64,000 bases of DNA from assembly GCF_988243305.1 (NCBI RefSeq), contig NZ_OZ547136.1. One strand, given 5' to 3'. Under the pieces are notes generated by a model. The model ran no database searches, had not been told where the DNA came from, and saw only the letters and a program-made list of their open reading frames with translations. How positions within the stretch are numbered: position 1 is the stretch's first letter; each line of letters begins with the position of its first letter. This document shows, in pieces, positions 25,022 through 55,282 of this stretch. Made by a program: the position numbers and the translations under genes.

Positions 25022-25069
25022 AGTAATACTCCAGTGTATTATAAATCCGCTATTATTGTGAGGTTTAAT

Positions 25070-26536: not shown

Positions 26537-26545
26537 GAATAACGG

Positions 26546-27376: not shown

Positions 27377-27421
27377 GAAATCAAATTACAAGTGATAAAT
27401 ATATTTAATGATGAGGCATTT

Positions 27422-28132: not shown

Positions 28133-28144
28133 AAGGTGATTACA

Positions 28145-29254: not shown

Positions 29255-29315
29255 CTGTAATGCAGGTGACTGTATTAGTTGTTCAGTCACCTGAGTTATT
29301 TTAATGGGGTTTATA

Positions 29316-30239
29316 ATGAATAAAGATAGATCTTTAAATGAAATGATGTTAAGCTTGTTTAATAAATCAACTATTGTTGACTTGTCAAGTGAGACAATAT
29401 CTGAGAGTAAATCTCTTTCAGGCCGTATTTATCAGGATCCTGAACATAACGGGGAATTTGAACTTGATCGTGTATTGACAGATATTTATGCTCCTCAGTT
29501 AATTATTTTTTTACCAGATAAACCAAATGGAACAGGAATATTGATTATTCCCGGGGGGGGCTACCAGGCTGTTATGTTAGATAAGGAAGGTACAGCTCTT
29601 GCTCCAGAGTTTTTATCTCAGGGCTATACATTATTTGTTCTTAGTTACAGATTACCATCGCCAGTTGAGGGAGAAAATATAAACAAAACTTTTATTGATG
29701 CAATATCTGCAATGCTTTATATTCGTAAGAATGCTGATAAATGGCATCTACAGCGTCATCGTATTGGTGTATTAGGATTTTCTGCTGGGGGGCATATCGC
29801 CTCAACGTTTGTGAATCAGATTTGTGATTTCAAACGTTCTTCTGACAGTAAAGAACAAGAGATTTTCGCTATTCCCGATTTTGTCGGGTTAATTTATCCT
29901 GTAATATCAATGAAAGATGATGTGACACATCCAGGCTCCAGGAAGCAATTACTGGGGGACAATAGTACCTCAGAAAATATAATACAATATAGTGCGGATC
30001 TTAATGTCACATCATGTTTTCCTCCTGTGTTTTTACTCCATTGTTGTGATGATGATCTTGTGTCAATTGAAAACAGTCTGCTCATGTACCGTGGCCTAAT
30101 AGAGAAAGGTGTTTCTGCTGAAATGCATCTCTATGAGAAAGGAGGGCATGGTTTTAGTATTCAGTGGGCCACAGATCTTCCTGTTGGAGGATGGATAAAA
30201 CTGTTTATGGACTGGATGTATTCTCATGGATTTAAATAA
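29316..30239 (+). CDS. Alpha/beta-hydrolase esterase, copy 2
   Basis: Paralog of 26546..27376 with the same GFSAGG and HGF motifs. Confidence 0.65.
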   Translation: MNKDRSLNEMMLSLFNKSTIVDLSSETISESKSLSGRIYQDPEHNGEFELDRVLTDIYAPQLIIFLPDKPNGTGILIIPGGGYQAVMLDKEGTALAPEFLSQGYTLFVLSYRLPSPVEGENINKTFIDAISAMLYIRKNADKWHLQRHRIGVLGFSAGGHIASTFVNQICDFKRSSDSKEQEIFAIPDFVGLIYPVISMKDDVTHPGSRKQLLGDNSTSENIIQYSADLNVTSCFPPVFLLHCCDDDLVSIENSLLMYRGLIEKGVSAEMHLYEKGGHGFSIQWATDLPVGGWIKLFMDWMYSHGFK

Positions 30240-30274
30240 TATTTATGGTGACTACCTGGTGAAGCGTCGAGTAA

Positions 30275-31009
30275 CTATGATGCTTCAATTCGTTTATAAA
30301 GGTGATTATACATTAGCTGTTCAGCTTTATCACAATCATGCTCTTTTATGGCCGTAAGTATTTCAATATGCTGCTGATGGGTTTTTTTGTTATTTTCATA
30401 TGTCATTTTATTCTTTTCCAGAGGTTTGGCCATTATCAGCCATTCAGAAAATGCTGAGTGTATTGTTTTTAATACTTTATTGTCAGGTATATCAGCAAGT
30501 ATACTATGAAATTCAATATCATATTGAGCATACACTTCGGGGGTTCTCAGTGAGTTATGATGGATACTGAGCACCTTCTCAAGCCTGTGAATATCCTCAG
30601 GCGTTGCATTTTTTGCTGCATATCTTACAAGGTTGGTTTCAAAAAAGATGCGTAGTCTTTCAAAATCCTTGATGCCATCAGCTGTAGATAAAAAATCTTT
30701 AACAATGCCTGATAACCCATTAATGATGGTTTCTGGTGATGGACGGCAGACACTGGCTTTTTCTCCCTTGTTATACCGGATTAGCCCTTTATGTCTGAGA
30801 GATGATAAAGCCTCTCTGACAGATGGTCTTCCAACGCCAAAGAATGCCATAAGTTCACGTTCAGAAGGCAGGTATTCACCTTCCCTTATCTCCTCCTGGC
30901 GGATCATTCTTTCAAGCTCTTCGGCAACGATTTCTGAAAGTTTTTTTGTAACAATGGGCTTTCTGGTCGTTGTTAGCCCGGGTAACACGGTTTTTTTGTT
31001 GTCGGACAT
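30275..31009 (-). CDS. GntR/FadR-family regulator (NanR-like)
   Basis: …LPSERELMAFFGVGRPSVREAL… and overall colinearity with NanR. Confidence 0.8.
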   Translation of the reverse strand: MSDNKKTVLPGLTTTRKPIVTKKLSEIVAEELERMIRQEEIREGEYLPSERELMAFFGVGRPSVREALSSLRHKGLIRYNKGEKASVCRPSPETIINGLSGIVKDFLSTADGIKDFERLRIFFETNLVRYAAKNATPEDIHRLEKVLSIHHNSLRTPEVYAQYDIEFHSILADIPDNKVLKTIHSAFSEWLIMAKPLEKNKMTYENNKKTHQQHIEILTAIKEHDCDKAEQLMYNHLYKRIEAS

Positions 31010-31105
31010 ATATTGATTTATATGGATTAGAGCAAATGAGTTTTTAATTTAACACTTTCTTTTAATAATGAAAATATTTAATTAAATCTATTATGTAAAG
31101 GGGGA

Positions 31106-32095
31106 ATGATGTATCATCATGATTTTAATGAAAAAATAGGTTTCTGGTATGTGATAGCCCTCGCAGGACAGTCTAATGGTATGGCCTACGGTGAAGGTAT
31201 TCCCCTGCCAGATACACTCGACAAACCCGAGTCCCGTGTAAAACAACTGGCTCGTCGAAAAACAATCACACCAGGAGGAAAAGAGTGTAAATTCAATGAG
31301 ATTATTCCGGCAGATCACTGCCTGCATGATGTTCAGGATATGAGTGGATATCACCATCCGGCTGCTGATTTGCATAAAGGGGAATATGGTTGTGTCGGAC
31401 AGGGATTGCATATAGCTAAAAAGTTACTGCCATACATACCTGAGCAAGCAGGGATATTACTGGTTCCTTGTTGCAGAGGAGGTGCCGCCTTTACTGTTGG
31501 AGCTGAAGGTATGTATGTACCTGATACAGGGGCAACAGCTGATGCAATGCGGTGGGGCACCGGAACAGCACTCTATGAGGACTTAGTAGCCCGGGTTAAG
31601 GTAGCTCTGGAATATAACAGAAAGAATAAACTGCTATCTGTCTGCTGGATGCAGGGGGAGTTTGATCTTATGTCACCAGATTATGAAAAGCATCCTGACT
31701 TGTTTTATCAGATGGTAACTTCTTTCAGGTCTGAGTTATCTGAATACTCATCTCAGTGTGTTGGTAATTCGTCAGAAAGAGTTCCATGGTTGTGTGGTGA
31801 TACAACCTGGTACTGGAAGGAATCTTATCAAAAAGAATATGATTTTATATATGGACATTACAGACAACGGACTGATGATGAAATACATTTTCTCAGCTTT
31901 CAGGATAGTAACCGACATGAATTAACTAATGAGCCAGAAGAAGATGCCGATGATTTATCTGTCGGGTATCTGGGGTCATCATGGAGGACAGAATTAAGCT
32001 GGACAACGTCACAGAGAAGTACACATTTTAATTCAATGGCCAGAAGGGGAGTTATTGCTGAATGTTATGCGCAAAAAATAAGAAATTATTTGTAG
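31106..32095 (+). CDS. nanS: Sialate O-acetylesterase NanS/YjhS-like (SGNH hydrolase)
   Basis: ALAGQSNGMAYGE GDS-type motif; similarity to YjhS as recalled. Confidence 0.8.
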   Translation: MMYHHDFNEKIGFWYVIALAGQSNGMAYGEGIPLPDTLDKPESRVKQLARRKTITPGGKECKFNEIIPADHCLHDVQDMSGYHHPAADLHKGEYGCVGQGLHIAKKLLPYIPEQAGILLVPCCRGGAAFTVGAEGMYVPDTGATADAMRWGTGTALYEDLVARVKVALEYNRKNKLLSVCWMQGEFDLMSPDYEKHPDLFYQMVTSFRSELSEYSSQCVGNSSERVPWLCGDTTWYWKESYQKEYDFIYGHYRQRTDDEIHFLSFQDSNRHELTNEPEEDADDLSVGYLGSSWRTELSWTTSQRSTHFNSMARRGVIAECYAQKIRNYL

Positions 32096-32139
32096 ACTGA
32101 ACCGCCCCGGGTTTCCTGGAGAGTGTTTTATCTGTGAAC

Positions 32140-34882
<2,743 letters not shown>

Positions 34883-35300
34883 CGTAAGTAAAATCAGCCA
34901 CCCACAGCTGGTCAGGACGTTCTGCCACGCACTGACGGTTTACGCGGTCACCTGTGGCAACGGTTTTCCGGCTGACGGTAGTGCGGACCTTTTTACCCCG
35001 GAGAACACCGGCAAGTCCCATAACCGCCATGAGGCGCGCCACTGTACATCTGGCCACCCTGATTCCTTCCCGTAACAACTGACGCCAGACTTTACGCACA
35101 CCGTACACCTGATGATTTTCATCGTATACGCGCTGTATCTCTCTCTTCAGCCAGTCATCGTGCTGCGCACGGGCACTGCGTTTATCCGGATGATGTCGCT
35201 GTTGCTGACAATGGTAATACGTTGACGGGGCAATATGCAGTTCGCTGCATACCGGTCCGACCCCGTACTGCTCACGCAGCTTATCCAGCAGTGGCATCAT
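34883..35300 (-). pseudogene. IS629 orfB, 5' exon portion
   Basis: [21 protein letters not shown]…QLWVADFTY then intron sequence. Confidence 0.8.
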
Positions 35301-35623
35301 TTTTTCCAGAGGCGGTCGAACTCCGCCTTCGCAAAATAAGCGGAAGCCTGGCGAAGGATATCGTTACTGCGGCGCAGTTCACGATTTTCACGTTCCAGCT
35401 CTTTCAGACGCTGACGTTCAGCGGTGGTGAGCCCTCCATCACCGCCCCCGGTATCCCGCTCATGCTGGCGAACCCAGACACGCAGAGTCTCCGGCGTACA
35501 GCCAATCTTTGGGGCAATGGAACAAATTGCCGCCCACTGTGAGTCATACTCATCCTGACTTTCCAGAACCATACGAATCGCCCGCTGACGGACTTCGGGG
35601 GAAAAACGAGTATTTTTAGTCAT
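35297..35623 (-). CDS. IS629 OrfA
   Basis: [60 protein letters not shown]…. Confidence 0.85.
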
Positions 35624-36027
35624 CCTGTTTACCTCTTTCTCAGGGAGTTTAGTCTCCAGGATTCCCGGGACGGTTCAGTTTCCATTCATGCTTTTAATCT
35701 TTCCCAAAATAACTAAAGCCAGATGTAACAGGCGAACATGGTAAAGTGTCCGCATATTTGAACCTCGCTGATAACGCCTTCACCTGACAACATATTGTCA
35801 GTGCTTCAGCATGTTAAGCTGTTCTTCTGAAAGGTCGGTAAGCTCCAGGACCATATTCCGACTTATCCTGGAAGGATGGCTGGTTCAGACTTCAGGATAT
35901 GGTTGAGGGTTACCTAGTGATGAAGTCTCTTGATCAGGAGATCTGATCAAGAGACAGCACTGGGTGGGGGTGACCATCTCATATCTATGCCTCCATTTGG
36001 CAATCATCAATTTTGACAGAAATAAAG

Positions 36028-36055
36028 CACAGGGGCTGTTCACATAGCCCCTGTG
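36028..36055 (-). terminator. Rho-independent terminator downstream of the MFS transporter gene
   Basis: 10-bp stem CACAGGGGCT / AGCCCCTGTG with 8-nt loop, T-rich 3' side on the minus strand. Confidence 0.5.
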
Positions 36056-36138
36056 CAGAGCAATTGATAACTCTTACTTTGTTGAAAATTCATTGCAGCT
36101 AAGGTCAATGCCACAACAACAAAGCAAATAAAGATTAA

Positions 36139-37425
36139 TCAGGCTTTATTAGGTAAAGTATTTACCGAATGTGAAATCTTCACTGTCAGTGTAACAACTG
36201 CTGAACACAATAGCGTGGCTATCATAAAGATGAATGCACTGTTGTAACTTCCGTCGCTGCTTTGGATCAACCAGCCAATGACAGGGGCAGAAATAACCCC
36301 AGCCATCTGACCGCCAAAGTTAACGATACCTGATGCTCGCCCCATGATATTACTGGGAATAGTATCCATCAAAATGCCCCAGAACATTGCCATAGCGAAG
36401 AACATAAACAACGCTGAAACACATTGATAAACAACAGCCATATCCGCACTACTTACGCTGAAAGTCAAGTACAGGAACCCTGCAGCAATTACGGAAGTCA
36501 AGACATATAGTGTTTTACGTTGTGGTTTTAATTTATCTGAGCAATAGCCACCTAATAATGTCCCCCCAGCTCCAAATAGAAAGGGGATCGCAGCCATTAC
36601 GCCAGTTTTGGCCAATGAGAATTCACGAACAGTAATTAGATAACTTGGCAACCAAGTTGAAAAGCCCCAGAACGTAATATCAAACAAAAACCAAATGCAG
36701 GCCATCTGCCAAAGTACAGGCATCTTAAGTACATCTTTAAATGCAATATTACTTTTGCCTTGCCCCCCGTCCTGGTTATCTGATGCTAGCTCAACCAGAT
36801 CCTGCTGCGTTATTGCTGGATGATCTTTTGGATTATCACGGGTAAATAACCAGATACCCGCAGCAATAAATAAACCTGGTATACCCAATACGATGAAGAC
36901 CATGTGCCAGCCAAATGCACCGATAATGCTCGCCGCTACAACAACCGCCAGTGCTGGCCCTAAGGTGTTCACCGTAGACTGAATGGCTGTTGCGCGTCCT
37001 CGCTCTTTCGATGGAAAATAGGTCGAAATCATCTTCCATGAAGCTGACGGGAAACAACCTTCCCCTATACCAAAGAAGAAACGAACAATCAGCATTAACG
37101 GCAGAGCAAGTACCGCACCAGTAAGGCTGGTAAATATGGACCACCATGCAATACCAATGGCCATAATTTTCCTTGAGCCAAACTTATCGGCTAACATTCC
37201 ACCGGGAATCTGAAATGCAGCATAACCAATAAAAAAAGCACTAATAATTAAACCTTGTTGTGTTGTATCAAGATTTAAATCTTTGCCAATATAAGGTAAT
37301 GAAACACTCATGACCATTCTGTCGAGAAAAGAGAGTAACCATGCTAACCAAATTAAGGTCAAGACGGTATATCTTGCTTTCCAAAGTTTTGGTTTACCTA
37401 AAGGTAAAGATGTTTGTAGATTCAT
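36139..37425 (-). CDS. MFS transporter (428 aa)
   Basis: 12-TM-type hydrophobic profile; last gene of the sigma-54 operon. Confidence 0.85.
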   Translation of the reverse strand: MNLQTSLPLGKPKLWKARYTVLTLIWLAWLLSFLDRMVMSVSLPYIGKDLNLDTTQQGLIISAFFIGYAAFQIPGGMLADKFGSRKIMAIGIAWWSIFTSLTGAVLALPLMLIVRFFFGIGEGCFPSASWKMISTYFPSKERGRATAIQSTVNTLGPALAVVVAASIIGAFGWHMVFIVLGIPGLFIAAGIWLFTRDNPKDHPAITQQDLVELASDNQDGGQGKSNIAFKDVLKMPVLWQMACIWFLFDITFWGFSTWLPSYLITVREFSLAKTGVMAAIPFLFGAGGTLLGGYCSDKLKPQRKTLYVLTSVIAAGFLYLTFSVSSADMAVVYQCVSALFMFFAMAMFWGILMDTIPSNIMGRASGIVNFGGQMAGVISAPVIGWLIQSSDGSYNSAFIFMIATLLCSAVVTLTVKISHSVNTLPNKA

Positions 37426-37502
37426 TGTAATGTCCTTTGAGTGTAACTATCTATCGCGACTCTTTTGGTCGCGATAGATCAATAAGTATTTAACGTAATT
37501 TA

Positions 37503-39098
37503 TTAATATTCTTTTCTGATAACTTTACCGCTACAGGCATAACTTTCCGTACCATTAATTAAGGCGATACGTCCATTGACCATTACAAGTTCAATTCCTT
37601 CTGGATACTGATTTGGCTCTACAAATGTTCCCTTATCTGCAATGGTTTTGGGATCGAACATTACAATATCAGCCGCATACCCAACTTTAAGTAATCCCCT
37701 GTTTTGCAGACCTAATACTTCCGCAGGTTTGCCGGTCATTTTACGAATTGCATCCTCCCAACTTAGGCATCCCTCTTCACGCACATATTTGCCCAGTACA
37801 CGAGGAAAGGCTCCAAACACTCGAGGATGGGGTTTTCCTGCCCCCATTAAACCATCAGTACAGACGTTCTGCTCTGCACGACAGAGGAATTTAATAACGT
37901 GTTCTTCTGTCCCATAGAAATCAACCATTCCTACAGCGTTTTCTTCTTCAAGAAGCAAATCGAAAGTGGCGTTATAGGGATCTTTACCGCGTAATTCGCC
38001 TAACTGGACAAGATTCAAACCTACGGCATCCTGATTTTTGGCAGTTTTCACACTGGTGACAAAAATTTGGTCTAGACCAGCAAAGTCAATAAAGTTATCC
38101 CATCCTGGAATACCTTGCTGAATGTCGTCGATCATTTTTGCACGCAGTTCTGGCGAAGCTAGTCGTTTCAGCAATTTATCCGTTCCTCCGGAATGGACCC
38201 ACGGAGGTAGGATTACACCAAGCATAGTGCTACCTGCAACATACGGATATTGATCGTAAGAGATACGTATTCCCTCTTTCTGCGCCTGTTCCAACATGCC
38301 AAGCATTTGGTCAATAAGCCCCCAGTTTTTCTTCCCACATACTTTCATATGTGATATATGGAGCCACACACCACTAGCTTTGGCTATATCGATTAATTCT
38401 TGGGTTGAATTGATAATATCATCAGCTTCACTGCGCTGATGCACCACAAAGAGCCCATCATATTTCGCTGTGACTTTACATAATTCAATCAACTCAGCAG
38501 TATCGCCAAAGGCGCAGGGCATATAGATAAGCCCAGAGGAAAGACCAAATGCCCCAGCTTTTAACTCCCGCTCAAGGATTTCACACATCTTTGCGACGTC
38601 TTCACGGGTAGAAGGGCGACCATCAAGTCCCATCGCTTCCATACGTACATTACCATGCGGAACCAGATACGCTAGATTTGTTGCTGGATGGTGAGATTCC
38701 AATAGGTTTAGGTATCCATCGGTATTTTTATATTTCCAGTCTATTTTATCGGTATCACCGTCAAGTCCAGCAATATTTTTACGCCAAGCTGGAATATATT
38801 TCTCAGGTAGTGGAGCCAATGCGACACCATCCTGTCCAAGTAACTCAGTAGTAATACCTTGACGTATTTTTGCCGATAGTTCAGGATTTATAATGGCCGA
38901 TAAATCAGAATGTGTGTGTGTATCAATAAAACCAGGGCAAATAATTTTTCCGCTTGCATCAATAAATTGTTCATTCTTACCAACATCAACGTGGCCGATG
39001 GAAATAATATATCCATCATCAACTACCACGTCAGTAATTATGCCCGGACTTCCTGTTCCATCAATAACATTTCCATTTTTAAAAATTGTTTTCATCAT
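37503..39098 (-). CDS. Amidohydrolase, N-acyl-D-amino-acid deacylase (D-aminoacylase) family
   Basis: GFIDTHTH metal-binding motif and family-like N-terminus; start taken at MMKTIF with GGAG RBS. Confidence 0.8.
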   Translation of the reverse strand: MMKTIFKNGNVIDGTGSPGIITDVVVDDGYIISIGHVDVGKNEQFIDASGKIICPGFIDTHTHSDLSAIINPELSAKIRQGITTELLGQDGVALAPLPEKYIPAWRKNIAGLDGDTDKIDWKYKNTDGYLNLLESHHPATNLAYLVPHGNVRMEAMGLDGRPSTREDVAKMCEILERELKAGAFGLSSGLIYMPCAFGDTAELIELCKVTAKYDGLFVVHQRSEADDIINSTQELIDIAKASGVWLHISHMKVCGKKNWGLIDQMLGMLEQAQKEGIRISYDQYPYVAGSTMLGVILPPWVHSGGTDKLLKRLASPELRAKMIDDIQQGIPGWDNFIDFAGLDQIFVTSVKTAKNQDAVGLNLVQLGELRGKDPYNATFDLLLEEENAVGMVDFYGTEEHVIKFLCRAEQNVCTDGLMGAGKPHPRVFGAFPRVLGKYVREEGCLSWEDAIRKMTGKPAEVLGLQNRGLLKVGYAADIVMFDPKTIADKGTFVEPNQYPEGIELVMVNGRIALINGTESYACSGKVIRKEY

Positions 39099-39161
39099 AA
39101 TTCTCCATGACGATGTCACATGGTGACACCGCCTGTAAGGGAAGAGGTTTTATCTTTAAAT

Positions 39162-40346
39162 TTAACGGAGATATAGTGTCTGAATAATGCTGTAATAACC
39201 ACTGGCCGAACCGGTTAATTGCTCGATCTCAATGTACTCATCAATGGTGTGCGCCAAGTTTTCCCGTGAAGGTCCAAACCCAATAGTTTTGATCCCCGCT
39301 TCACCAGCATAGTGGCTTCCGTTTGTACAAAATGAGTACTGCGTGATGGTCGGTGAAAACCCTGCCTTACGAATACCAACCAACGCAGCTTGTACAAATT
39401 CATCAGATTCGTCAAACACCCACCCAGGGAAGAAACGCTCACCTTCAATAGTTGCTCCTGTGTAGCAGGACTCTTGGCCTACTGCGTACGAGACCCGCCC
39501 TTTAAACTGCGGATCGAGGATTGCGAACTCTGCCAGTACACGTTCCAGAGGTGCAATAACGTTTTCTTTCGTTTCTCCGACAAGCAAACGGCGATCGTAA
39601 GTTGCACGGCAGTAATCCGGCACTACTGATGCTCCCGGATATGGCGATGATTTAATGTCTGTTAACTCTAAAATTCCGGGGCCAAGTATCGGATGCATTG
39701 GTGGTACAATGGTACGAATTTTGTCAATTAATTGTGCCATTTTGTAGACAGCATTTATTCCTGCCTGTGGATTGGCTGAGTGAGCTGGTTTCCCAAATGT
39801 TTCGACAACAATTTCAGCGCGTCCACGCTGACCGATTTTCAGGTTTAATTCGGAAGCTTCACCGATAATTACGTAATCAGGTTTAAAACGTTCACTGACC
39901 AAGCGTGCCGCAACACCTTCAAAACACTCTTCATGGACAATACAGGCTACGTAAATTTTGCCGGAAAAATTACGCTGGTAATCCTGACCAAAAAAACCAA
40001 CGGCGGAGATCATAGCCGCAACAGCTCCCTTCATGTCGGTTGCCCCCCGACCATAAATTTTGCCTTCGTCAATATCACCGCCATATGGATTCCGAGTCCA
40101 CATATCTTCGTTTACAGGCACAGTATCAATATGCCCATCCAAAACGAGAGTTTTCCCTGGCTGATTGCCAATAATACCACCAATAATATTGCCATACTTA
40201 TCGATATGAATATCGTCAAACTGGTAATACTGCATCATATCTTTTATGGCATTCACTACATCCCCTTCCTGACCGGAATAGCTTTTTTGTTGGATCAATG
40301 TCTGACAATTTTTAATAACTTCTTTATAACGACTTGCAGATAACAT
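39162..40346 (-). CDS. M20-family metallopeptidase/deacylase (YgeY/ArgE/DapE-like)
   Basis: LDGHIDTVP and GRGATDMKG motifs. Confidence 0.8.
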   Translation of the reverse strand: MLSASRYKEVIKNCQTLIQQKSYSGQEGDVVNAIKDMMQYYQFDDIHIDKYGNIIGGIIGNQPGKTLVLDGHIDTVPVNEDMWTRNPYGGDIDEGKIYGRGATDMKGAVAAMISAVGFFGQDYQRNFSGKIYVACIVHEECFEGVAARLVSERFKPDYVIIGEASELNLKIGQRGRAEIVVETFGKPAHSANPQAGINAVYKMAQLIDKIRTIVPPMHPILGPGILELTDIKSSPYPGASVVPDYCRATYDRRLLVGETKENVIAPLERVLAEFAILDPQFKGRVSYAVGQESCYTGATIEGERFFPGWVFDESDEFVQAALVGIRKAGFSPTITQYSFCTNGSHYAGEAGIKTIGFGPSRENLAHTIDEYIEIEQLTGSASGYYSIIQTLYLR

Positions 40347-40378
40347 GGTGTTCCTCCGTTATTATTTAAATTAGAAAA

Positions 40379-41593
40379 TTACTGCTGAAGTACCGGATAC
40401 TGAGTCCCCCAGACAATATTGCGATATGATTCTGGGTCAGTGTCACCTTCAGTGCTGATTAGCAAAACACGGGAATGTGAATCCAGCCCCAACTGTTCAC
40501 GGGTTTGCCTAAATGTAGGGGAGGTCATCAGTAACGCCAGAAGCCCTGTGGTTACTGCCCCTGACTCTCCAGAAATAATCTGCGGATCTCCTGCTAACGG
40601 ATTTCCCAAAATACGCATACCCAACATTGCAACCTCGTCAGGACAGGAGGCAAAGGCTGTAGCATAGTCACGTAGCAGCTTCCAGCCGATACTGTTAGCC
40701 TCGCCACAAGCCAGTCCTGCCATGAGTGTCTGCAAATCCCCCCCTACTGCCACGGCATTTCCATCTTTCGCCAAGGCTGAGCGGTAGAGGCAATCGGCAA
40801 TTAATGCTTCTACAACGATTACTTTTGGACGATTATCCCCCCAAGCAGCAGTCACCATTCCCTGGACCATACCCGCAAACGAACCAACCCCCGCTTGGAC
40901 AAAGATATGTGTTGGTGCTACCTGATGGAGTTGAGCCATAGCCTCCAGCATCAACGTGCTATAGCCCTGCATGATCCATAGAGGAATTTTTTCATACCCT
41001 TCCCAAGCGGTGTCCTGAACAACAATCCAGCCGGATTTATCTGCCTGCTCTGCGGTCATTCGAACAGCATCGTCATAGTTCATATTGACAATTTCAGCCG
41101 TAGCACCTTCATTGCGAATTGATGACAGGCGTTGTTGCGAAGACCCCTTTGGCATATAAACTACTGCATTTTGCTTTAGCTGACGCGCCATCCACGCTAC
41201 TCCCCGCCCGTGGTTACCGTCAGTAGTAGTAGCAAAGGTAACTGTTTTCAGATAATGGCGCACATCGTCACTAGTCATGATATCAAACGACAATTCATCA
41301 ATCTCTTTCCCTAGTAATTCTGCGATATGACATGCCATGGCATAGGCGCCACCCAGCACTTTGAAGGCTTTTAGGCCAAAACGCTGAGACTCATCTTTGA
41401 GATAGATCTTTTTTATCCCTAATTTTTGTGAAAGCGCAGGTAATGTATAGAGCGGCGTTGGCTCGTAGCCTGGTATTGTCCGATGAAAATTCAATGCTTT
41501 TACCAGCTCATTGTGACTAAATGAAGCTAGTGGTGCGCTAGGTTGCTGAGTAAATTGTGTCTGGTTAATAAAAAAGGATATTTTTTCCTGCAT
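40379..41593 (-). CDS. PLP-dependent diaminopropionate ammonia-lyase-like enzyme (DpaL/YgeX family)
   Basis: Family-level resemblance to YgeX-type ammonia-lyases; first gene of the operon. Confidence 0.75.
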   Translation of the reverse strand: MQEKISFFINQTQFTQQPSAPLASFSHNELVKALNFHRTIPGYEPTPLYTLPALSQKLGIKKIYLKDESQRFGLKAFKVLGGAYAMACHIAELLGKEIDELSFDIMTSDDVRHYLKTVTFATTTDGNHGRGVAWMARQLKQNAVVYMPKGSSQQRLSSIRNEGATAEIVNMNYDDAVRMTAEQADKSGWIVVQDTAWEGYEKIPLWIMQGYSTLMLEAMAQLHQVAPTHIFVQAGVGSFAGMVQGMVTAAWGDNRPKVIVVEALIADCLYRSALAKDGNAVAVGGDLQTLMAGLACGEANSIGWKLLRDYATAFASCPDEVAMLGMRILGNPLAGDPQIISGESGAVTTGLLALLMTSPTFRQTREQLGLDSHSRVLLISTEGDTDPESYRNIVWGTQYPVLQQ

Positions 41594-41675
41594 GATAAGA
41601 CCTCATTGTACTGGTATCTCGCACCCTGTAATCAGAGAAATCCAAAGATGCCTTCTGTATGACTATTCACTAAAA

Positions 41676-41691
41676 AGCAAAATGCGTACCA
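41676..41691 (-). promoter_or_regulatory. Candidate sigma-54 (-24/-12) promoter for the dpaL-like operon
   Basis: Minus strand reads TGGTAC-GCATT-TTGCT (GG-N10-GC spacing) about 85 bp upstream of the dpaL-like start; sigma-54 activator encoded divergently. Confidence 0.5.
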
Positions 41692-41973
41692 GTTTTTTAT
41701 TAGAGTTAGTAAAAAGTAACATATATTTCTTTAACCTTTTCATTTCAATGAATTAGGAAGTCATTGCGTCATAATGAATCCCCCTCCCTAGTATTGGCCT
41801 TATTTCAATGCCTGATAAATTCTCATTAATGAGAATTTATGTGATCAATCAAAAGAAAATAATAAAAACACAAATAAAACATATAGATATATTGATCTTT
41901 TTCAAGTAAATTTTTCCTAATATCATATAATTTCTCATTTTTCTGAGAATTTTATACTGACTGGAGGAGAACC

Positions 41974-43719
41974 ATGATTTCAGTACTGAGAAACATTCAG
42001 GATGATATATGTAATTATGCCGATGCTATCTCTGGCATAATCGGAACTGATGTAGAAATCATTGATGAGTCATTAATGCGCATAGCTGGTACAGGTCAAT
42101 ACAGGTATATGCTCAATGAGAGTGTGGTAAAAAATGGTTACATTTATCGGCATGTATTACAGGTACGAAAAACAGTTCTGATCACAAATCCAGGAGAACA
42201 TCCTCTCTGCCAGTTATGTGAGAAAAACCATTATTGCTCGGAAATGTTAGATTTGAACACACCCATTTTTCTCAATGAGCGTGTCATCGGAGTCATTGGA
42301 ATTATTTGCTCTACCCAGACACAGCGTAAAATCTTGTTGAACCAGATTGATAAATTTATTACCTTTATTGAGCAAATTGCTGCGATGATTTCCAGTAAAG
42401 TCTTCGAATGTCTGGAACGCCTGCGGGCCCAAGAAACTCTCAGTACATTTCGTCGATTGATTGATGCGATGGATCGCGGTGTTGTAGCTATTGATGGTAA
42501 GGGCCGAATCTGGCACGCTAACAACTCAGCCGATCGCATACTTAACCGCAAGGTTCAAGGTATTACGTTAACGATTGAAACAACCGGGGACATTCTATAT
42601 GGAGATGAAGAAGCATGGTTGACGCTGGAAGGAGAAAGATACCATGTGTTGTGCAAACAAATTTCTCTTTCCTCATTAGATAATGATCGACTCACCATGA
42701 TTATCTTTCGTGATGCACATGACTATCTGAGCACAATAGTTTATCCTTACGAATCTGATGCTCAAGTGCGATTAATTGGACATTCACCACTAATGGAACA
42801 ACTCAGAAGCACCGTTAGAAAAATCGCCAGTAGTTGTGCCAGCGTACTGATCACCGGAGAAAGTGGCTCAGGTAAAGAAGTTGTGGCATTTGCTATTCAT
42901 CAGAATAGTCCACGTAAATCCGCTCCTTTTGTAACAATCAACTGCGCTGCAATCCCAGAGCAACTGCTGGAAAGCGAGCTATTTGGCTACGTGAAGGGGG
43001 CATTTAGTGGGGCGAATCCTAAAGGACGTATAGGTAAATTTGAACTGGCCAATGGGGGAAGTCTCTTTCTCGATGAGATCGGAGATATGCCGCTCCATCT
43101 GCAGGCCAAGCTGCTTAGAGTTCTTCAGGAAAAAAACATTACCCGCGTTGGCTCTAATAATATTATCAATATTGATGTGCGCATTATTGCTGCGACCAAC
43201 AAAAACATCCGTGAAATGGTTGAGAGTAATCAGTTTCGAGAAGACCTTTATTATCGCCTGAATGTGGTTCCTCTAGTAATTCCTTCTTTACGGGAACGAC
43301 GGACTGATATTGCCCTCCTTGCACAATATTTTGCTGATGAGTTCTCTGAAAGCTATCAACGTCCAGTGAAAAAACTCCCCGATGATATAATTAACCATCT
43401 TTACGCTTGGCACTGGCCTGGTAACATCCGTGAATTACGTAATGTCATTGAGTATATTTTTGTTATGCGTGGTGAAACTACTGATATCAACGTCAGCCAT
43501 CTTCCCCCTTATCTGCTCAATGTAGTGGACAACAGCAAAACTGTTATGACAATCAACACCAAGCAGCTACTGAGTCAGGGAAGACAAGCGGAAAGGAGGG
43601 CAATTGAAACTGCATTACAACGATATAGCCCAAGTGGAGAGGGGAAAAAACAAGCTGCCGCTGAATTAGGAATAAGTATTGCTACACTATACCGAAAGAT
43701 AAAACAATATGGTTTATAG
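41974..43719 (+). CDS. Sigma-54-dependent transcriptional activator (YgeV-like)
   Basis: AAA+ Walker [15 protein letters not shown] and ESELFGY sigma-54 interaction motifs, C-terminal HTH; GGAGGAG RBS. Confidence 0.85.
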
Positions 43720-43948: not shown

Positions 43949-44835
43949 CTACACTTTAGCCAGCCCATGTTTTCCACCGGGAAATGGGCTGACGGTATCC
44001 ATAAAGTGACGAACCTTTTTCAACAACTGCCACATTGAACGGCACTGGTGATTTCGGGTTACTGTCTCATGAAGCGCCTGCCATAACCGTTCGATATGAT
44101 TGACCCACGGCGAGTAAACCGGCTGATAAATTATCCTGAACTTCGAGTTTGCTTTCAGCCAGCGCAACGTTTCACGGCTTTTGTGGATGATGTAGTTATC
44201 GACAATGAGTGTAATCGTTTTTGCCCGCCGGTATGTCGCTTTCAGGTGTTTTAACAGACTGATAAATAAGGACGAACCTTTACTGTTCCCACCAACGTAG
44301 CTGACTTTTCCCGTACCGCTGTGCAGCGCACCGGCAAGATAGTACTTTTCATTCTGACCCGGCGTGACAACGCGCTTTTGCTGCCCACGTAGCTGCCAGC
44401 CTGCACCAATTTTGGGATTGAGGTGAATATCCACTTCATCTTCGTAAAACACGGGGTTTTCCGCACAGCATTTCGCCAGTGCTTCATGAATAGCGACCAT
44501 TTTTTCTTCTTTGTGTGGGTCACGGATACGCAGTGTCGGCGCAGTTCTCCGCCATACCAGTCCGGCAGCAGGCAACCAGCGGCATATACACTCGGCAGGT
44601 AATGATTTGTCCATTAACACCCGACTGCGTGAACCAGTTAATCCAGGGTCCAACATAGGAACGGACTCAGCAGAGCATTCTAGCAACATCGCTGACACGG
44701 TGGAGCCATTGCAGTATCACCATAGCAGTCAGTCTGCGGGCATAATTTTTATCGTGTGTTTTGTGGATAGCTTTCTGTATCAGGTGTCGTTCGTTACAGG
44801 GAATTGGCTCTATGATTGGCATAGTTCAGTCCGGT
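43949..44835 (-). pseudogene. IS630-family transposase, decayed (frameshift and internal deletion)
   Basis: N-terminal MPIIEPIPCNERHLIQKAIHKTHDKNYARRL… in one frame, DDE part (…TITLIVDNYIIHKS…) in another, about 150 bp missing. Confidence 0.75.
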
Positions 44836-47179
44836 TGGTGATTTGTTTTAATTTGTCGATTGAACAAACGCACAATCCGGGCTGAGTTCCCTCAAAGTGA
44901 TCTACTATTCCGTGCAGCTATTTAGATCAAGGCTAAGGCAGGAATTTTATGTAATTAATGCTAGAGGTAAACGTTGTGGGTAAATGGTTTGCATGGTTAA
45001 TATTTAACCATAAGGAATAAGAGGTATTGCAGAATTAATTCCGTATAGTTATTCTTCTTGTAAGAAGATTTTTGGGTGCTAGTGATAAATTACAGAGCCT
45101 ATAGAAATGTAAAGTAACAAATCACAGAATAAGGATACAATAGCATAATTTATTGTCACACAAAGCCCCAAGACATTCTGTAATAAAAGGAATTTCCATA
45201 AGAAGAACCATTGACAATAATATGAGCACCACCATTGTAGAGATATTTATTTATGACTGAAAAGGAACTCCAAAATTTGGCTATTTCTATATATGAAAGG
45301 CAACGAGAGAAGTTATCACGTGAGACAGAGTGTAATAAATCTACCTCAATAAGATTTGCCCTAGAAGATTTCCTAAAGAATGCTCCGAAACGTATGCGAT
45401 CTGCGCGTGCTCGCCCCCCAGGGTAATAAATGTCGCAAACTCTGATAATATTTTTATGAAAACAAGCATATTTACAAACGTAAACTAATGATTCTAATTT
45501 GACAGAATATAAACTATAAGTATTAATAAATACCATACGGAGCAGAAAAAAATATCAAAATGAGTTAATTTGATTAGAAAGATTTATCCCATTTATAAAG
45601 ATAATTGTAGAAAGATTCATTGACTCTAAGAGCAAATAAGGAGAGGGCATACAGGATATAACTAGTACTCATAATAAAAATCCCTCTACCGATATAAGTA
45701 AAATTTATTTCCCAGACGAGTTTTTAATAATACATATCAGAAACAGTGCTAAACGATGGGCCGTAATCCTCATGAATAGTAACTCATGGTTATTTTACAC
45801 TGGATTATCGGTGGGGTAATTCTGATAATAGAAACACCTGAAAAACTAAAATCATTAATTTTAAAATACAACCATATACTCATCAAACTCTCGATACACC
45901 ATTCTTCTTTTAAAGTAAAGAAAAACTCTATCTGTGCTTATGTTCCACAACATAAATAGAATAAAAAAATTAAGGATTTATATATTAAGAGTGAATTTAC
46001 ATTTTAGGCTAACTTTAGTACATATTAATTATTGTTTCTTATTAATTTTAAACTTCAAAAGCTATATCAAGGGTTGCCACTTCTATCTGCGACTAACAGC
46101 ATATCTATCAGCAACAATTGATTAATTCCAGCACCTCATGTCGGCGCGATCTGGTGGAAAAGCCATTCCACCAAAACAACCCCAAGCGCTGGCACGTTGG
46201 GGAGATCTGCACTGTGAACCAGCTGGCAATGAGCCGCTTTATTATCGAGTTCGGTGACCGCCTAGACGGTCACTTCTGAGAAAAGGCATTTACACAGAAT
46301 CCTAAACCGGCTCGCAGGTTTCCCCCACTCCCCATCCGCACTCAAGTTCAGACGGCGAATAACATAGCTAATCAGCTCATTACGGAATGACTACCATCCA
46401 GATAGTGTGCCGCAGTTTAAGGTTCGGTCAACCGCTTTTTAACCATTCAGCATTGCCTACAATACAAATAAGGAGCCTTATATTATGCCTAATCTCTGTA
46501 TGCTGCATAGTGCCGGGTGCCTCCCGGTGAGTCCAGCCTGGTGTCTCTGAACCCGCATAGAAAGGATTAGGGTAATATAAAAACAAACACCTGTTACTGA
46601 TATGCTCCGCCGCTTAGGGGAGTTCACCATACATTTTTATTTTTAACAAAAAAGCTCAAGGCGACAATAATAAATACTATAAAATGTGAGCAGCATAACA
46701 TTTTAACTTAGTAACTAATATTCACTAAACTTACCAATTCACATACGCCCCACGGCATGGCAAAGCTTCGTTACGTTAGTTTATACCACATAGGTATTAT
46801 TACCAAACTAAATAATCACTTTACGCTCTGTATTTTGCCTGTTTTCACTGCGGTTTTTCTCAATACCCCGTCCAGAATAACGTTAACACATTATTAACTT
46901 AAATCCGGAGAACATGATGATGACTGGATTCAAACACACTTAACATGAATATCCTCTATCCATTAAAATAACTGTCATTGAGCCGGTTGAAAAAACGAGA
47001 TGAACTATAAACAGATCTAGCAGTGGCATGGCTGGCGAATGGCGTTATCAATCCACTGCCTTTACTGAGTGCTGAATATCCCTTCACTGACCTGGAAGAG
47101 GTGCTACGTTTCGCCGGTGATAAAACCCAGGCATCAAAAGTCCAGCTTGTTTTCTTAGAGATAAATAAAGGAATAATAC

Positions 47180-47863
47180 AATGAACAAGCAATTTTCACT
47201 GGCAGAAAAAATATCTTGATTACCGGATCAGCACAGGGCATTGGCTTTTTACTGGCAACCGGTCTGGGTAAATATGGCGCACAAATAATTATTAATAATA
47301 TTACTGCCGAACGCGCATAACTTGCTGTAGAAAAACTCCACCAGGTGGGTATTCAGGCCGTTGCCGCACCTTTTAATGTTACTCATAAACATGAAATTGA
47401 TGCCGCCGTTGAACATATCGAAAAGGACATCGGCCCCATTGATGTGCTGGTGAATAACGCCGGTATCCAGCGCCGTCATCCTTTTACTGAGTTCCCTGAA
47501 CAAGAGTGGAATGATGTGATCGCAGTAAACCAGACCGCCGTGTTCCTGGTGTCGCAAGCGGTAACCCGTCACATGGTTGAACGCAAGGCAGGTAAAGTTA
47601 TTAATATTTGCTCGATGCAAAGCGAACTGGGACGTGGCACCATCACCCCTTATGCCGCATCGAAAGGGGCGGTAAAAATGCTCACCCGCGGCATGTGCGT
47701 CGAGCTGGCGTGCCACAATATTCAGGTCAACGGTATTGCGCCGGGCTATTTCAAAACAGAAATGACTAAAGCACTGGTTGAGGACGAAGCCTTCACCGCC
47801 TGGTTGTGCAAGAACAAATTTCCATTGCGGGTTTTTATGGGCTGGAGATTGGCAGGCAAATGA
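47180..47863 (+). pseudogene. idnO: Gluconate 5-dehydrogenase idnO pseudogene (frameshift, in-frame stop, 3' truncation)
   Basis: MNKQFSLAEK… then frameshift; …ITGSAQGIGFLLATGLGKYGAQII… and a 172-aa ORF match IdnO; C-terminus diverges. Confidence 0.8.
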
Positions 47864-47865
47864 TC

Positions 47866-48003
47866 CCAAGCCTCGCCAGCGTAATTACTCCCCGTTTTGA
47901 TATTGGTCGGATGGCCGCCCAAATGTTGCTGAGCAAAATTAAGAATAACGATCACAACACTGTTGACCTCGGGTATCAGATTTATCACTGTAACACGCTT
48001 TAG
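47866..48003 (+). pseudogene. LacI-family regulator 3' fragment (possibly idnR)
   Basis: …SLASVITPRFDIGRMAAQMLL… is a LacI-type C-terminal signature; follows idnO as in the idnDOTR operon. Confidence 0.45.
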
Positions 48004-48745
48004 GTTATTTTCTCTTCATTACACGTATTCTCTTTGCCGGACGTTGCCTATACTCCAAGCAGGAAACTGGAGGAAATCTCATGAGCGCCTCCCTGTTAAT
48101 TGCCCGCATGCCAATACGGTGGGGTGGGATATCTTTGGCGAGAAAGGCCATCCGGTGCGGGCAACGGTTTCAGACCTAGGGCCACTGTTGCTGGCGTGGC
48201 TGTTGAATCTCAACGATGTGCAGTCTGGCGTGCTGGATATCATTTTCCGCATTGCTGATGATCAGGGATTGTTGCTGCTCGACTTTAAAGATCTGCGGGC
48301 AATTACCCAGTACATCGGCGATAACGCCAAATCCTTCCAGAATCAGTACGGTAATATCAGTAGCGCATCGGTTGGTGCCATCCCGCGCGGATTACTGTCG
48401 CTGGAGCAACAAGGCGCAGAGCATTTCTTTGGCGAGCCGATGCTGGATATCAAAGACTGGATGCGCACCGATACCAACGGTAAAGGCGTTATTAATATCC
48501 TCAGCGCCGAGAAGCTTTATCAGATGCCGAAACTGTATGCAGCCAGTCTGCTGTGGATGCTCTCGGAGCTGTATGAACAATTGCCGGAAGCGGGCGATCT
48601 GGAGAAACCAAAACTGGTGTTTTTCTTCGACGAAGCGCATCTGCTGTTTAACGATGCAGCACTGGTACTGCTGGATAAGATTGAGCAGGTGATAAGGCTT
48701 ATTCGCTCAAAAGGCGTTGTCGTCAGAACGGCTTCCCCTGTGTGA
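47990..48745 (+). pseudogene. yjgR: yjgR internal fragment (DUF853 ATPase)
   Basis: …[26 protein letters not shown]…[18 protein letters not shown]… matches the middle of YjgR; both ends missing. Confidence 0.7.
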
Positions 48746-49321: not shown

Positions 49322-50503
49322 TCAGGTCTGCTCAGAAAGTGAATCAATGTAGTCAGCGTACCATTGCATCATTTCACGGCGACCATCGAGATACTGTGCG
49401 TGGTTATAGGTACCGCGCATGATGTTTTTATCAACATGGGCAAGCTGGAGTTCAATCCAGGCAGAGCTGAAATCATGGTCATGGAGAATGGTACTGAAAG
49501 TATGCCGAAAACCATGAGCTGTAGTGAATGTATGCCAGCCAACTTGTTGAAGAAACTCATTGATGCAACCACGGCTACGAGGTTGATTACCCCTGTATAC
49601 ACCAGGAATAACCAGATCTGAGTTACGGGGATTTGTGATTATTTTTATATCTTTCAATAACATTTGAGCCTGATGAGAAAGAGGAACAACATGCGGCCTC
49701 CGCATTTTCATTCTCTCTTTTGGGATTACCCAGAGGGCATTGGTAAAATCAATTTCATCCCAAGTAGCCAGGCGTAATTCTCCCGTTCGAACAGCAGTCA
49801 GAACCAGTATCCGCGTTACCAGAGACATAAAATTTCCTGAAACTTTCATTTGGTACATGAAAGCTCCTAACTGTTCTTCAGATAGCATCCGTCTCTGCTG
49901 TTTTTCAGGATGCAGAACAACACTGCTGAGAGTCGATGCTGGGTTAATAGTGGCGCGCCCCGTCGCAATGGCATAATCAAATATTTGAGAACAGAGCTGA
50001 CGAGTCTTACGTAACGCTTCAAGTTTGCCATTCCTTTCAATAACCCTCAGTGCATTCAATATTTCCAAGGGGCGAATATCAGCCACAGGACGCTTCCCTA
50101 GCGTGGGATTAATATGATTCTCGAATCTTGCACGCTGGTCCGCTAAATAACCCGCAGTCCAACGACAAGCCATATGTGTGAACAACTCTTCTGCAAGAGT
50201 ACAAAATGTGCATGCAATACTTTCTCTTAGTGCATGTTTACTCGCCTGTTTTTCATATGAAGGATCTTTTCCTTCAGCCAGGAGTTTACGTGCGTCATCC
50301 CGTTTCTGACGCGCCAGAGCCAGTGATATGCCTGGATAGACACCAATCACCAATTTCTTTTCTTTACCCGCAAATCGATACTTCAGATTCCAGTAACGAG
50401 CGCCAGATTTCTTGATAAGAAGGTAAAGTCCTTGACCATCAGAAAGTTTGTAATCCTTGTCAGCGGGTTTGGCCGACTCAATTTGTCGAACAGTAAGTGG
50501 CAT
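49322..50503 (-). CDS. int: Tyrosine integrase, P4-type
   Basis: 393 aa; N-terminal …KLSDGQGLYLLIKKSGARYWNLKYRFAGKEK… and C-terminal HGFRHTF…LAHVD…Y catalytic signature; 177 bp from the right junction. Confidence 0.9.
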   Translation of the reverse strand: MPLTVRQIESAKPADKDYKLSDGQGLYLLIKKSGARYWNLKYRFAGKEKKLVIGVYPGISLALARQKRDDARKLLAEGKDPSYEKQASKHALRESIACTFCTLAEELFTHMACRWTAGYLADQRARFENHINPTLGKRPVADIRPLEILNALRVIERNGKLEALRKTRQLCSQIFDYAIATGRATINPASTLSSVVLHPEKQQRRMLSEEQLGAFMYQMKVSGNFMSLVTRILVLTAVRTGELRLATWDEIDFTNALWVIPKERMKMRRPHVVPLSHQAQMLLKDIKIITNPRNSDLVIPGVYRGNQPRSRGCINEFLQQVGWHTFTTAHGFRHTFSTILHDHDFSSAWIELQLAHVDKNIMRGTYNHAQYLDGRREMMQWYADYIDSLSEQT

Positions 50504-50521
50504 GATGTTAACTCCGAAAAG

Positions 50522-50542
50522 TAGCCCCCAGAGTAGCCCCCA
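50522..50542. repeat. TAGCCCCCA x2 direct repeats just upstream of the integrase start (candidate arm sites or operator)
   Basis: Same motif and orientation as the pair at 647..669 at the other island end. Confidence 0.45.
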
Positions 50543-50680
50543 AAATCATCTTGATGCTCATGGAAGATGGTTTACATCCAGAGTAAAAGAATTTCTGATA
50601 ATACCTTATTTTAACGTGTGTTAAAGGGGATGAAGAGAGTTCTGTTGAAATCAGTCGAAATAAATAGGGCTTAATAAATC

Positions 50681-50694
50681 CTCCCCGCCGGGGA
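50681..50694. repeat. 14-bp direct repeat CTCCCCGCCGGGGA, right island junction (att core)
   Basis: Identical to 576..589. Confidence 0.75.
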
Positions 50695-53887: not shown

Positions 53888-54349
<462 letters not shown>

Positions 54350-54370
54350 TTCGTTATTCAACGAGACGTA

Positions 54371-54397
54371 AAAACGCCGACCATTGGTCGGCGTTTT
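54371..54397 (+). terminator. rplI rho-independent terminator
   Basis: AAAACGCCGACC-ATT-GGTCGGCGTTTT perfect hairpin followed by a T-run. Confidence 0.8.
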
Positions 54398-54450
54398 GCT
54401 TTATAGCGAAAGCGTTACAACTGGTAGTATAACGCTCTGATATCTATTAA

Positions 54451-55267: not shown

Positions 55268-55282
55268 GGTAATGACTCCAAC

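Follow-up and report, generated by a model that had tools for sequence, protein, structure and literature searches.

The 64,000-nucleotide stretch of contig NZ_OZ547136.1 analyzed here (assembly GCF_988243305.1; hereafter the window) carries a five-gene cassette, acquired horizontally and flanked by insertion sequence (IS) elements, in which genes for a diaminopropionate ammonia-lyase (DpaL), an M20 metallohydrolase of the YgeY family, an amidohydrolase of the UacY type and a major facilitator superfamily (MFS) transporter face a divergent gene for a sigma-54 enhancer-binding protein of the YgeV family. With a probability of roughly 0.65, this cassette represents a self-contained mobile catabolic unit constituting the lower half of the reductive uric-acid (2,8-dioxopurine) pathway in its 'UacY' form, equipped with its own transporter and regulator. 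The gene content, the protein families, the conservation of promoter and palindromes and the co-localization of orthologues were observed directly, and the reactions assigned to UacY, YgeY and YgeX come from the literature.

In the anaerobic route, urate is converted to 2,8-dioxopurine, which undergoes reductive dearomatization by YgfK or UacX followed by ring opening by SsnA and HyuA; both ureido groups of 2,3-diureidopropionate are then removed, and the resulting 2,3-diaminopropionate is converted to pyruvate via YgeX (PMC12507026; 10.1101/2025.04.24.650524). In Clostridioides difficile, UacY, a PF07969 D-aminoacylase homologue, takes the place of YgeW and YqeA, so that UacY and HyuA convert ureidomethylhydantoin to albizziin, and YgeY and YgeX carry the latter to pyruvate (Li et al. 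2025, PMC12507026). UacY was operationally defined in that work as a PF07969 D-aminoacylase homologue accompanied by YgeY and YgeX homologues in an SsnA cluster without YgeW and YqeA (PMC12507026), and the amidohydrolase of the window showed 64-65% full-length identity to proteins of this description in four clusters. Complete uricolytic clusters also held orthologues of the other two enzymes (64-67% identity for the M20 protein and 56-57% for DpaL).

Since the three enzymes of the cassette correspond to UacY, YgeY and YgeX, a ureido (N-carbamoyl) derivative of diaminopropionate is the likely substrate. The initial annotation, made from the letters of the window and its open reading frames (ORFs), had proposed an N-acyl or D-amino acid or a diaminopropionate-containing compound; the last direction was upheld and narrowed to a ureido derivative, whereas a generic N-acyl-D-amino acid was not supported. 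No SsnA, XdhD/XdhAC-type hydroxylase, YgfK/UacX or HyuA was found between the flanking IS elements or among the flanking ORFs scanned, which did not include every ORF of the window; the cassette is a lower-pathway module only. The absence of the upper pathway, together with the addition of an organic-anion MFS transporter, suggests that an external ureido intermediate is taken up.

Organization of the locus

The coordinates of the cassette, its regulatory elements and its boundaries are given in Table 1. The four minus-strand genes and the divergent sigma-54 activator had been described in the initial annotation, and ORF coordinates and enzyme families agreed with those obtained here, the latter by formal profile and structure searches. 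The operon genes are intact and close-set, with gaps of 32-77 nt, and a strong terminator follows the last of them, its hairpin and T-run lying 83 nt past the MFS stop codon. Compared with their orthologues, none of the five genes is truncated. The amidohydrolase ORF opens at 39119; homologues and database entries begin at the ATG at 39095, and the start was placed there on account of a GGAGA ribosome-binding site and of homologue lengths.

Table 1. Features of the cassette and of its boundaries (window coordinates; aa, amino acids; UAS, upstream activator sequence).
Feature	Position	Strand	Remarks
MFS transporter gene	36139..37425	-	428 aa
UacY-type amidohydrolase gene	37503..39095 (ORF to 39119)	-	530 aa
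YgeY-family M20 metallohydrolase gene	39162..40346	-	394 aa
dpaL, diaminopropionate ammonia-lyase (DpaL/YgeX type)	40379..41593	-	404 aa
YgeV-family sigma-54 enhancer-binding protein gene	41974..43719	+	581 aa
Sigma-54 -24/-12 element TGGTACGCATTTTGCT	41676..41691	-	GG 41690-41689, GC 41678-41677
UAS1, proximal candidate site	41815..41840		Perfect 26-bp palindrome ATAAATTCTCATT/AATGAGAATTTAT
UAS2, distal candidate site	41932..41949		TTCTCA-N6-TGAGAA
Intrinsic terminator	36027..36056	-	11-bp stem, 8 G-C pairs, then TTTATTTCTG
IS3/IS629-family transposase remnants, left cassette boundary	34818..35623	-	Split by group II intron
Group II intron reverse transcriptase/maturase	32703-34226		Within IS3/IS629 element; 337 bits vs TIGR04416
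IS630-family transposase, right cassette boundary	43949..44698	-	

Enzymes and transporter of the cassette

Each of the three enzymes retains its catalytic and metal-binding residues. DpaL scored 589.5 bits against the equivalog model TIGR03528 (cut-off 532.25) and is 52% identical to YgeX from E. coli K-12, the residues equivalent to K77, D120 and D189 being conserved; Lys77, Asp120 and Asp189 (E. coli numbering) have catalytic roles in YgeX. The M20 protein scored 476 bits against the 'YgeY family' model NF009555 (cut-off 321), with its metal-ligand motifs (H/D/EE/E/H) conserved, and on sequence grounds it is assigned to a sister branch of YgeY that travels with UacY.

Among solved structures, the amidohydrolase, a PF07969 protein, is nearest to a D-aminoacylase (1m7j; E = 1e-79 to 8e-79) and an N-acyl-D-glutamate deacylase (3gip; E = 1e-74). 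It resembles these enzymes in fold and length, has the HxH, His, His and Asp metal ligands in common with them, and keeps the SH-x-K, YPYVAGST and PHPR motifs, in which K, Y and R bind a carboxylate. The canonical zinc site of D-aminoacylases is formed by Cys96, His220 and His250 (A. faecalis numbering). This site is not preserved in the family, since Cys96 is replaced by Asp (GQDG instead of GNCG) in 8 of 8 aligned members. The public label 'D-aminoacylase' thus calls for caution and is not to be read literally. The Asp may be connected with the use of ureido instead of acyl substrates, and the gene context likewise points to a ureido (N-carbamoyl) and not to an N-acyl substrate. The family is tight (62-100% identity among the best 120 database clusters), and its large Logan-derived clusters come from Cetobacterium, Clostridium paraputrificum and C. 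intestinale.

The top NCBIfam match of the MFS protein was TIGR00893 (254 bits, below the subfamily cut-off of 395), and its nearest solved structures were DgoT, sialin and VGLUT; from these relationships the transporter is assigned to the organic-anion (ACS/SLC17) branch. Orthologues occupy the same cassette position in Budvicia (81% identity), Propionivibrio (74%) and Sporomusa (63%).

Homologous loci in other bacteria

The uricolytic cluster of Clostridium tanneri comprises the activator, PALP, M20, UacY, SsnA, a xanthine/uracil permease, HyuA (617 bits vs a cut-off of 393) and XDH, and that of C. paraputrificum contains the same gene set plus a UacX-type DHO_dh protein and RidA. SsnA scored 697 bits in C. 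tanneri, and the scores in UacY-type clusters were 697 and 642 bits (cut-off 444). An acidobacterial contig carries SsnA, UacX, XDH, M20 and UacY. No YgeW-type carbamoyltransferase was in view in the clusters of C. tanneri, C. paraputrificum, the acidobacterium and Sporomusa sphaeroides. In the latter species, two UacY paralogues are present in one locus (L081, 9001-11997 and 12521-16546), one of them grouped with the MFS transporter, the pair having a sigma-54 promoter to itself, and the other included in the main operon together with PALP, M20, permease, HyuA and XDH.

The five-gene cassette was also found as a stand-alone unit in Citrobacter werkmanii, Budvicia aquatica, Propionivibrio, where RidA follows, and on a plasmid of Rhodovastum atsumiense, where it lies between transposases; no upper-pathway genes were present within ~9 kb of these cassettes. 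The proteins of C. werkmanii are 85-93% identical to those of the window. Direct transfer from Citrobacter was considered and rejected, the C. werkmanii cassette having a G+C content of 50.4% vs 42.6% for the cassette studied here.

In Providencia (L083, 10670-13450), the MFS gene is swapped for a hydantoinase (TIGR02033, 403 bits vs a cut-off of 393) and an NCS1 allantoin-permease-like transporter, which suggests that this variant of the pathway would be entered at the hydantoin (ureidomethylhydantoin) stage. Because the type of transporter changes together with the first enzyme, the MFS protein would import the ring-opened acid, 2,3-diureidopropionate. In Propionivibrio (L084, 12030-12407) and C. 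paraputrificum (L093, 19418-19801), the cassette or cluster is followed by an enamine/imine deaminase of the RidA family, which has no counterpart in the E. coli cassette. DpaL releases a reactive aminoacrylate, with which a RidA neighbor fits.

The YgeV-family activator and its sensor region

The activator contains Sigma54_activat (PF00158, E = 1e-72), AAA lid and HTH_8 (E = 7e-7) domains, together with the Walker A motif GESGSGKE, a Walker B motif and the GAFSGA loop, and aligns over its full length with E. coli YgeV (38% identity over 596 positions). An N-terminal sensor region had been anticipated in the initial annotation. This region is predicted with high confidence to consist of GAF and PAS domains, as modelled with AlphaFold2 on an alignment of 60 homologues (predicted local distance difference test score, pLDDT, of 95.2): a GAF-like domain (residues 1-123) is joined through a long 40-residue helix to a PAS domain (166-255). 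Relatives of residues 1-264 were found in 759 clusters (50% identity), almost all of them in proteins of ~580 aa.

The best solved structural match of the sensor was the GAF-PAS N-terminus of DhaR (PDB 4lrx; template modelling score, TM, of 0.51; E = 4e-10), a member of the E. coli enhancer-binding-protein family with the same succession of GAF, long helix and PAS. Sequence identity between the two is 13%, and while DhaR senses partner proteins, the YgeV family has an invariant CxxC-x5-C motif. This Cys triad (C79, C82 and C88; window 42208-42237) lies in the GAF-like domain and was invariant in 60 sequences, including E. coli YgeV; it may represent a metal, Fe-S or redox site.

Predicted sigma-54 promoter

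Upstream of the operon, TGGTAC and TTGCT are separated by GCATT in an element with a GG-to-GC spacing of 10 nt, located 82 nt 5' of the dpaL ATG. It matches 10 of the 11 positions of the sigma-54 consensus, taken as TGGCAC-N5-TTGCW-like with GG (-24) and GC (-12) exactly 10 nt apart, and transcription is predicted to start near 41665, ~70 nt before the dpaL ATG. Across the 64-kb window, the consensus was matched twice with one mismatch or less vs 3.2 matches expected, i.e. not above chance. As the motif alone was uninformative, this count was replaced by region-specific shuffles and comparative conservation. When the test was confined to the correct strand of the 380-bp divergent intergenic region, only 0.1% of dinucleotide shuffles reached the score of the element (p ~0.001).

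All 10 of the homologous regulatory regions examined have a sigma-54 element 5' of the operon; 9-11 of the 11 consensus positions are matched, and per-region shuffle p values were 0 to 0.037. These regions belong to nine loci, from E. coli, Citrobacter, Budvicia, Providencia, Propionivibrio, the Rhodovastum plasmid (64% G+C), Sporomusa (two promoters), C. tanneri and C. paraputrificum. In C. werkmanii, which has the most similar cassette, the intergenic DNA is strongly diverged, yet the element is kept as CTGGTAAGCATTTTGCT at an equal distance from the start codon. The TGGTAC-N5-TTGCT promoter claimed initially was therefore exact in sequence and spacing, supported at the level of the region and kept across phyla, and its role as the sigma-54 promoter of the operon appears well supported by comparison. 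A scan for sigma-70 promoters gave no more matches than in shuffles.

The sole other near-consensus sigma-54-like match in the window, TGGCACTGACTGTGCT (22212-22227, plus strand), has GTGC instead of TTGC in its -12 region and lies ~1 kb upstream of a low-G+C block of sialic-acid genes.

Palindromes as candidate activator-binding sites

Two palindromes lie between the operon and the activator gene. The core of UAS1 (TTCTCA-N4-TGAGAA, 41820-41835) is centered ~138 bp upstream of the -24 GG, and UAS2 is located 25 bp before the activator ATG, just downstream of a sigma-70-like match, where it may also mediate autoregulation of the activator gene. The two cores are the only perfect matches to the TTCTCA/TGAGAA pattern in the window. 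Given their position and symmetry, the palindromes are probable binding sites of the activator.

Each of the homologous regulatory regions bears palindromes of the form TTATCA-N3-7-TGATAA, or their E. coli variant, and usually two of them: with up to one mismatch, 17 matches were counted in 8 regions vs 0.29 expected, the maximum in 300 shuffles being 4. The distance from the proximal palindrome to the -24/-12 element (144 bp, start to start) is identical in the four Enterobacterales. The half-site is TTCTCA/TGAGAA in both E. coli palindromes and TTATCA/TGATAA in most other loci, and mixed TTATCA/TGAGAA sites occur in Citrobacter (L001, 8621-9000) and C. paraputrificum (L093, 7331-7571). No change that might explain the E. 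coli variant was found in the recognition helix of the activator, whose sequence (IATLYRK) does not vary; the third half-site position is probably tolerated, and may not be read by the activator.

In the ygeV-ygeW intergenic region of K-12 (L088, 7788-8262), the best sigma-54-like element was TGGCACACTTATTGTT, with TT where the -12 GC would stand, and the TTATCA-type repeats found there were all imperfect. The resident YgeV promoter of K-12 looks weaker than, or different from, those of UacY-type loci.

Genomic setting and distribution

The G+C content of the cassette (42.6%) is below that of the host (~51%). The arrangement at its left boundary, where the intron splits the IS3/IS629 element (32703-35623), is also found in E. 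coli BR1220, and positions 812-35678 of the window match the island at selC in that strain; there, the Sat autotransporter follows the IS element instead of the cassette. In other E. coli, the DNA left of the cassette carries annotations for sialic-acid genes and further genes of the island. At the opposite end, positions 54000-64000, which run from cycA to cpdB, show 100% identity to E. coli chromosomes and place the window in this species. Fragments of idnT-idnR-yjgR-idnO-idnD (96% identical, in three pieces; 47020-48725 and 49322-51500) adjoin a tyrosine integrase that abuts ulaE, which indicates a rearranged idn/ula junction. No tRNA gene was detected in the window with ARAGORN.

In megablast searches, the cassette was found in none of 5,426 complete RefSeq E. 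coli genomes and on no PLSDB plasmid. Records of the exact cassette proteins are limited to about 47-73 E. coli contigs, and the 90% cluster of the M20 protein is mostly composed of Citrobacter sequences. The island-borne character of the gene set, suspected at the outset, is thus borne out by the low G+C content, the flanking IS elements, the mosaic island ending at the integrase by ulaE and the absence from complete genomes.

The neighboring positions 22000-32100 hold an accessory block for sialic-acid utilization of ~40% G+C, annotated in related E. coli as an MFS transporter, N-acetylneuraminate lyase and epimerase, sialate O-acetylesterase, alpha/beta hydrolases and a NanR-like regulator. 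A query spanning 22000-36100 was covered by more than 80% in only 6 of the 5,426 complete E. coli genomes.

Proposed mechanism and alternative explanations

If the cassette works as the lower half of the urate pathway, the signal detected by its GAF-PAS sensor would probably be the substrate, or else a ureido compound related to it. The activator would then bind the two palindromes, ~140 and ~250 bp upstream of the -24 element, and through ATP hydrolysis open the sigma-54 closed complex at TGGTAC-N5-TTGCT, giving rise to a single dpaL-ygeY'-uacY'-mfs transcript from ~41665 to the hairpin at 36056-36027. The MFS protein would import an anionic ureido-carboxylate, most likely (R)-2,3-diureidopropionate. 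One carbamoyl group would be taken off by the UacY-type amidohydrolase and the other by the YgeY-type M20 protein, yielding 2,3-diaminopropionate, which DpaL would convert to pyruvate and 2 NH3. The nature of the imported compound, the direction in which it is transported, the identity of the inducer and the ureido group removed by each enzyme are inferences.

A more specific version of this proposal is advanced tentatively, and is doubtful as a whole. The cassette might be a mobile 'scavenger', with which bacteria lacking or not expressing the selenium- and molybdenum-dependent upper pathway import 2,3-diureidopropionate given off by uricolytic neighbors and gain three carbons and four nitrogens. 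Late urate intermediates would then be cross-fed public goods, the GAF-PAS/Cys-triad sensor and the TTATCA/TGATAA palindromes would act as a dedicated detector, and Providencia would import the hydantoin precursor.

Several observations weigh against the assignment to the urate pathway. C. difficile UacY (Q181U6) was not among the top 120 matches in searches seeded with the window protein and its acidobacterial and Clostridium orthologues, so that the putative orthology to it is drawn from gene context and from the operational definition, and one homologue of the UacY family (75% identical) was found alone, without the cassette. The M20 protein is just 31% identical to the characterized YgeY of E. 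coli and falls below the cut-off of TIGR03526 (264 vs 321.5 bits). The substrate of the MFS protein and its direction of transport are suggested by family and context. Regarding the promoter, position 4 of TGGTAC is T instead of the consensus C, and one further mismatch is present in the Citrobacter copy; the GG and GC dinucleotides are intact in both elements. Finally, the order of the two hydrolases is disputed: the two 2025 papers give opposite first ureido cleavages, leading to albizziin or to 3-amino-2-ureidopropanoate (PMC12507026; 10.1101/2025.04.24.650524), and a commentary lists the regiochemistry as open.

Among the alternatives, the cassette could degrade an environmental diaminopropionate derivative unrelated to urate, such as plant L-albizziin (2-amino-3-ureidopropionate), N-carbamoyl- or N-acyl-diaminopropionates (e.g. 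oxalyl-diaminopropionate) or fragments of diaminopropionate-containing antibiotics or siderophores, its hydrolases stripping the acyl groups before DpaL acts. The stand-alone cassettes of environmental taxa (Budvicia from water, Propionivibrio, the Rhodovastum plasmid), the lack of upper-pathway genes near the cassette and the occurrence of albizziin as a plant amino acid (PMC12990295) agree with this explanation. It is nevertheless unlikely, considering that orthologous enzymes (64-67% identity) are embedded in complete uricolytic clusters, that an enzyme of the D-aminoacylase type suits the D (R) configuration put forward for bacterial intermediates better than plant L-albizziin, and that a mono-ureido substrate would need fewer than two deacylating enzymes.

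Quite unlikely, too, is a role of the cassette as a hydrolytic bypass of YgeW and YqeA for intermediates produced by the host's own xdhD-ygfK-ssnA-hyuA genes, in which case the MFS protein would serve to export an intermediate or to take up urate or a different purine, and not a ureido acid. The ygeV locus of E. coli does include HyuA and the upper pathway (PMC12507026), pathway-blocked mutants release intermediates to the supernatant, so export occurs, and the palindrome half-sites resemble K-12 ygeV-ygeW sequences, which would allow cross-talk. Yet the cassette is kept as a unit where no upper-pathway genes occur within ~9 kb, purine uptake in full clusters is served by Xan_ur_permease rather than by this MFS protein, and the Providencia swap of the MFS gene for an allantoin-permease-like importer and a hydantoinase points to import.

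A general operon for the utilization of N-acyl-D-amino acids or D-amino acids, in which DpaL would be a broad D-serine/D-amino-acid dehydratase, is very improbable: the public annotations ('D-aminoacylase', 'N-acyl-D-amino-acid deacylase family') and the homology of the amidohydrolase to 1m7j and 3gip speak for it, but DpaL passes its equivalog model with the specific catalytic residues kept, the amidohydrolase family invariably has Asp for the Cys ligand of D-aminoacylases, and the linkage to YgeX/YgeY homologues and purine-degradation genes is constant. Least probable of all is a silent passenger brought by IS activity, unexpressed or useless, with a promoter-like element that does not function in this host, since, in spite of the IS remnants on both sides of the cassette in a heavily rearranged island, its great rarity in E. 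coli and the off-consensus -24 element (TGGTAC), the five genes are full-length vs orthologues, promoter, both palindromes and terminator are intact, and in E. coli both palindromes have the variant half-site in perfect, symmetric form, which argues for continued selection.

Comparison with known systems

As a lower urate-pathway module, the cassette closely recalls the C. difficile-type UacY uric-acid cluster (PMC12507026; 10.1101/2025.04.24.650524), with which it shares a PF07969 protein, a YgeY-family M20 protein and YgeX/DpaL in one operon, a divergent or upstream YgeV-like sigma-54 activator, and orthologues that are 57-67% identical. The C. difficile-type cluster additionally contains SsnA, an XdhD/XdhAC-type hydroxylase, YgfK/UacX, HyuA and a xanthine/uracil permease, whereas the cassette lacks all of these, adds the organic-anion MFS transporter, and is mobile and IS-flanked. 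SsnA served as the anchor of the published survey (PMC12507026), and cassettes without SsnA therefore fall outside it. A full-text search of the literature on UacY and diureidopropionate returned pathway papers only.

The parallel with the ygeV-ygeW-ygeX-ygeY-hyuA-yqeA locus of E. coli K-12, drawn in the initial annotation for its ygeV-ygeWXY-hyuA part, was confirmed, a divergent sigma-54 activator facing in both cases an operon with DpaL and an M20 protein. The K-12 locus contains YgeW, a carbamoyltransferase, and YqeA, a carbamate kinase, through which ATP is conserved, where the cassette has a hydrolase and would thus obtain no ATP from carbamoyl phosphate. HyuA is present in the former and not in the cassette, which has a transporter instead, and the M20 protein of the cassette belongs to the NF009555 and not to the TIGR03526 branch.

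A similar logic is known from allantoin and allantoate systems, where either the hydantoin enters via an NCS1 permease and is then ring-opened, as allantoin is by allantoinase, or the diureido acid enters via an anion-type MFS transporter, followed by stepwise ureido hydrolysis; Dal5 is an allantoate/ureidosuccinate permease of the ACS family. The split between allantoin and allantoate is mirrored by the Providencia variant and the E. coli cassette, for which the corresponding compounds would be ureidomethylhydantoin and diureidopropionate. These systems differ from the cassette in the carbon skeleton (glyoxylate vs C3 diaminopropionate), the hydrolase families and the end product, which for the cassette would be pyruvate formed by a pyridoxal phosphate (PLP)-dependent lyase.

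Implications

All part families were already known, and the chemistry of the pathway was published in 2025. What appears new with respect to the 2025 papers is a free-standing, transporter-equipped and mobile lower pathway, the regulatory architecture of the YgeV family, and a distinct M20 branch associated with UacY. The anaerobic urate pathway of gut bacteria, worked out in 2025, is being pursued for the treatment of hyperuricemia. If the reading proposed here is correct, its lower half would be a detachable unit, borne on IS-flanked or plasmid DNA in Enterobacterales, Betaproteobacteria and Alphaproteobacteria, and this detachability would imply that ureido intermediates are available outside cells. 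The sigma-54 promoter, the palindrome at a fixed distance and the invariant Cys triad of the YgeV family would offer handles for finding its signal. The pair formed by UacY and the type-2 M20 protein would provide a compact, ATP-independent set for a test of regiochemistry and for the engineering of uricolytic probiotics. For E. coli, the cassette would be a rare accessory trait and not a core function.

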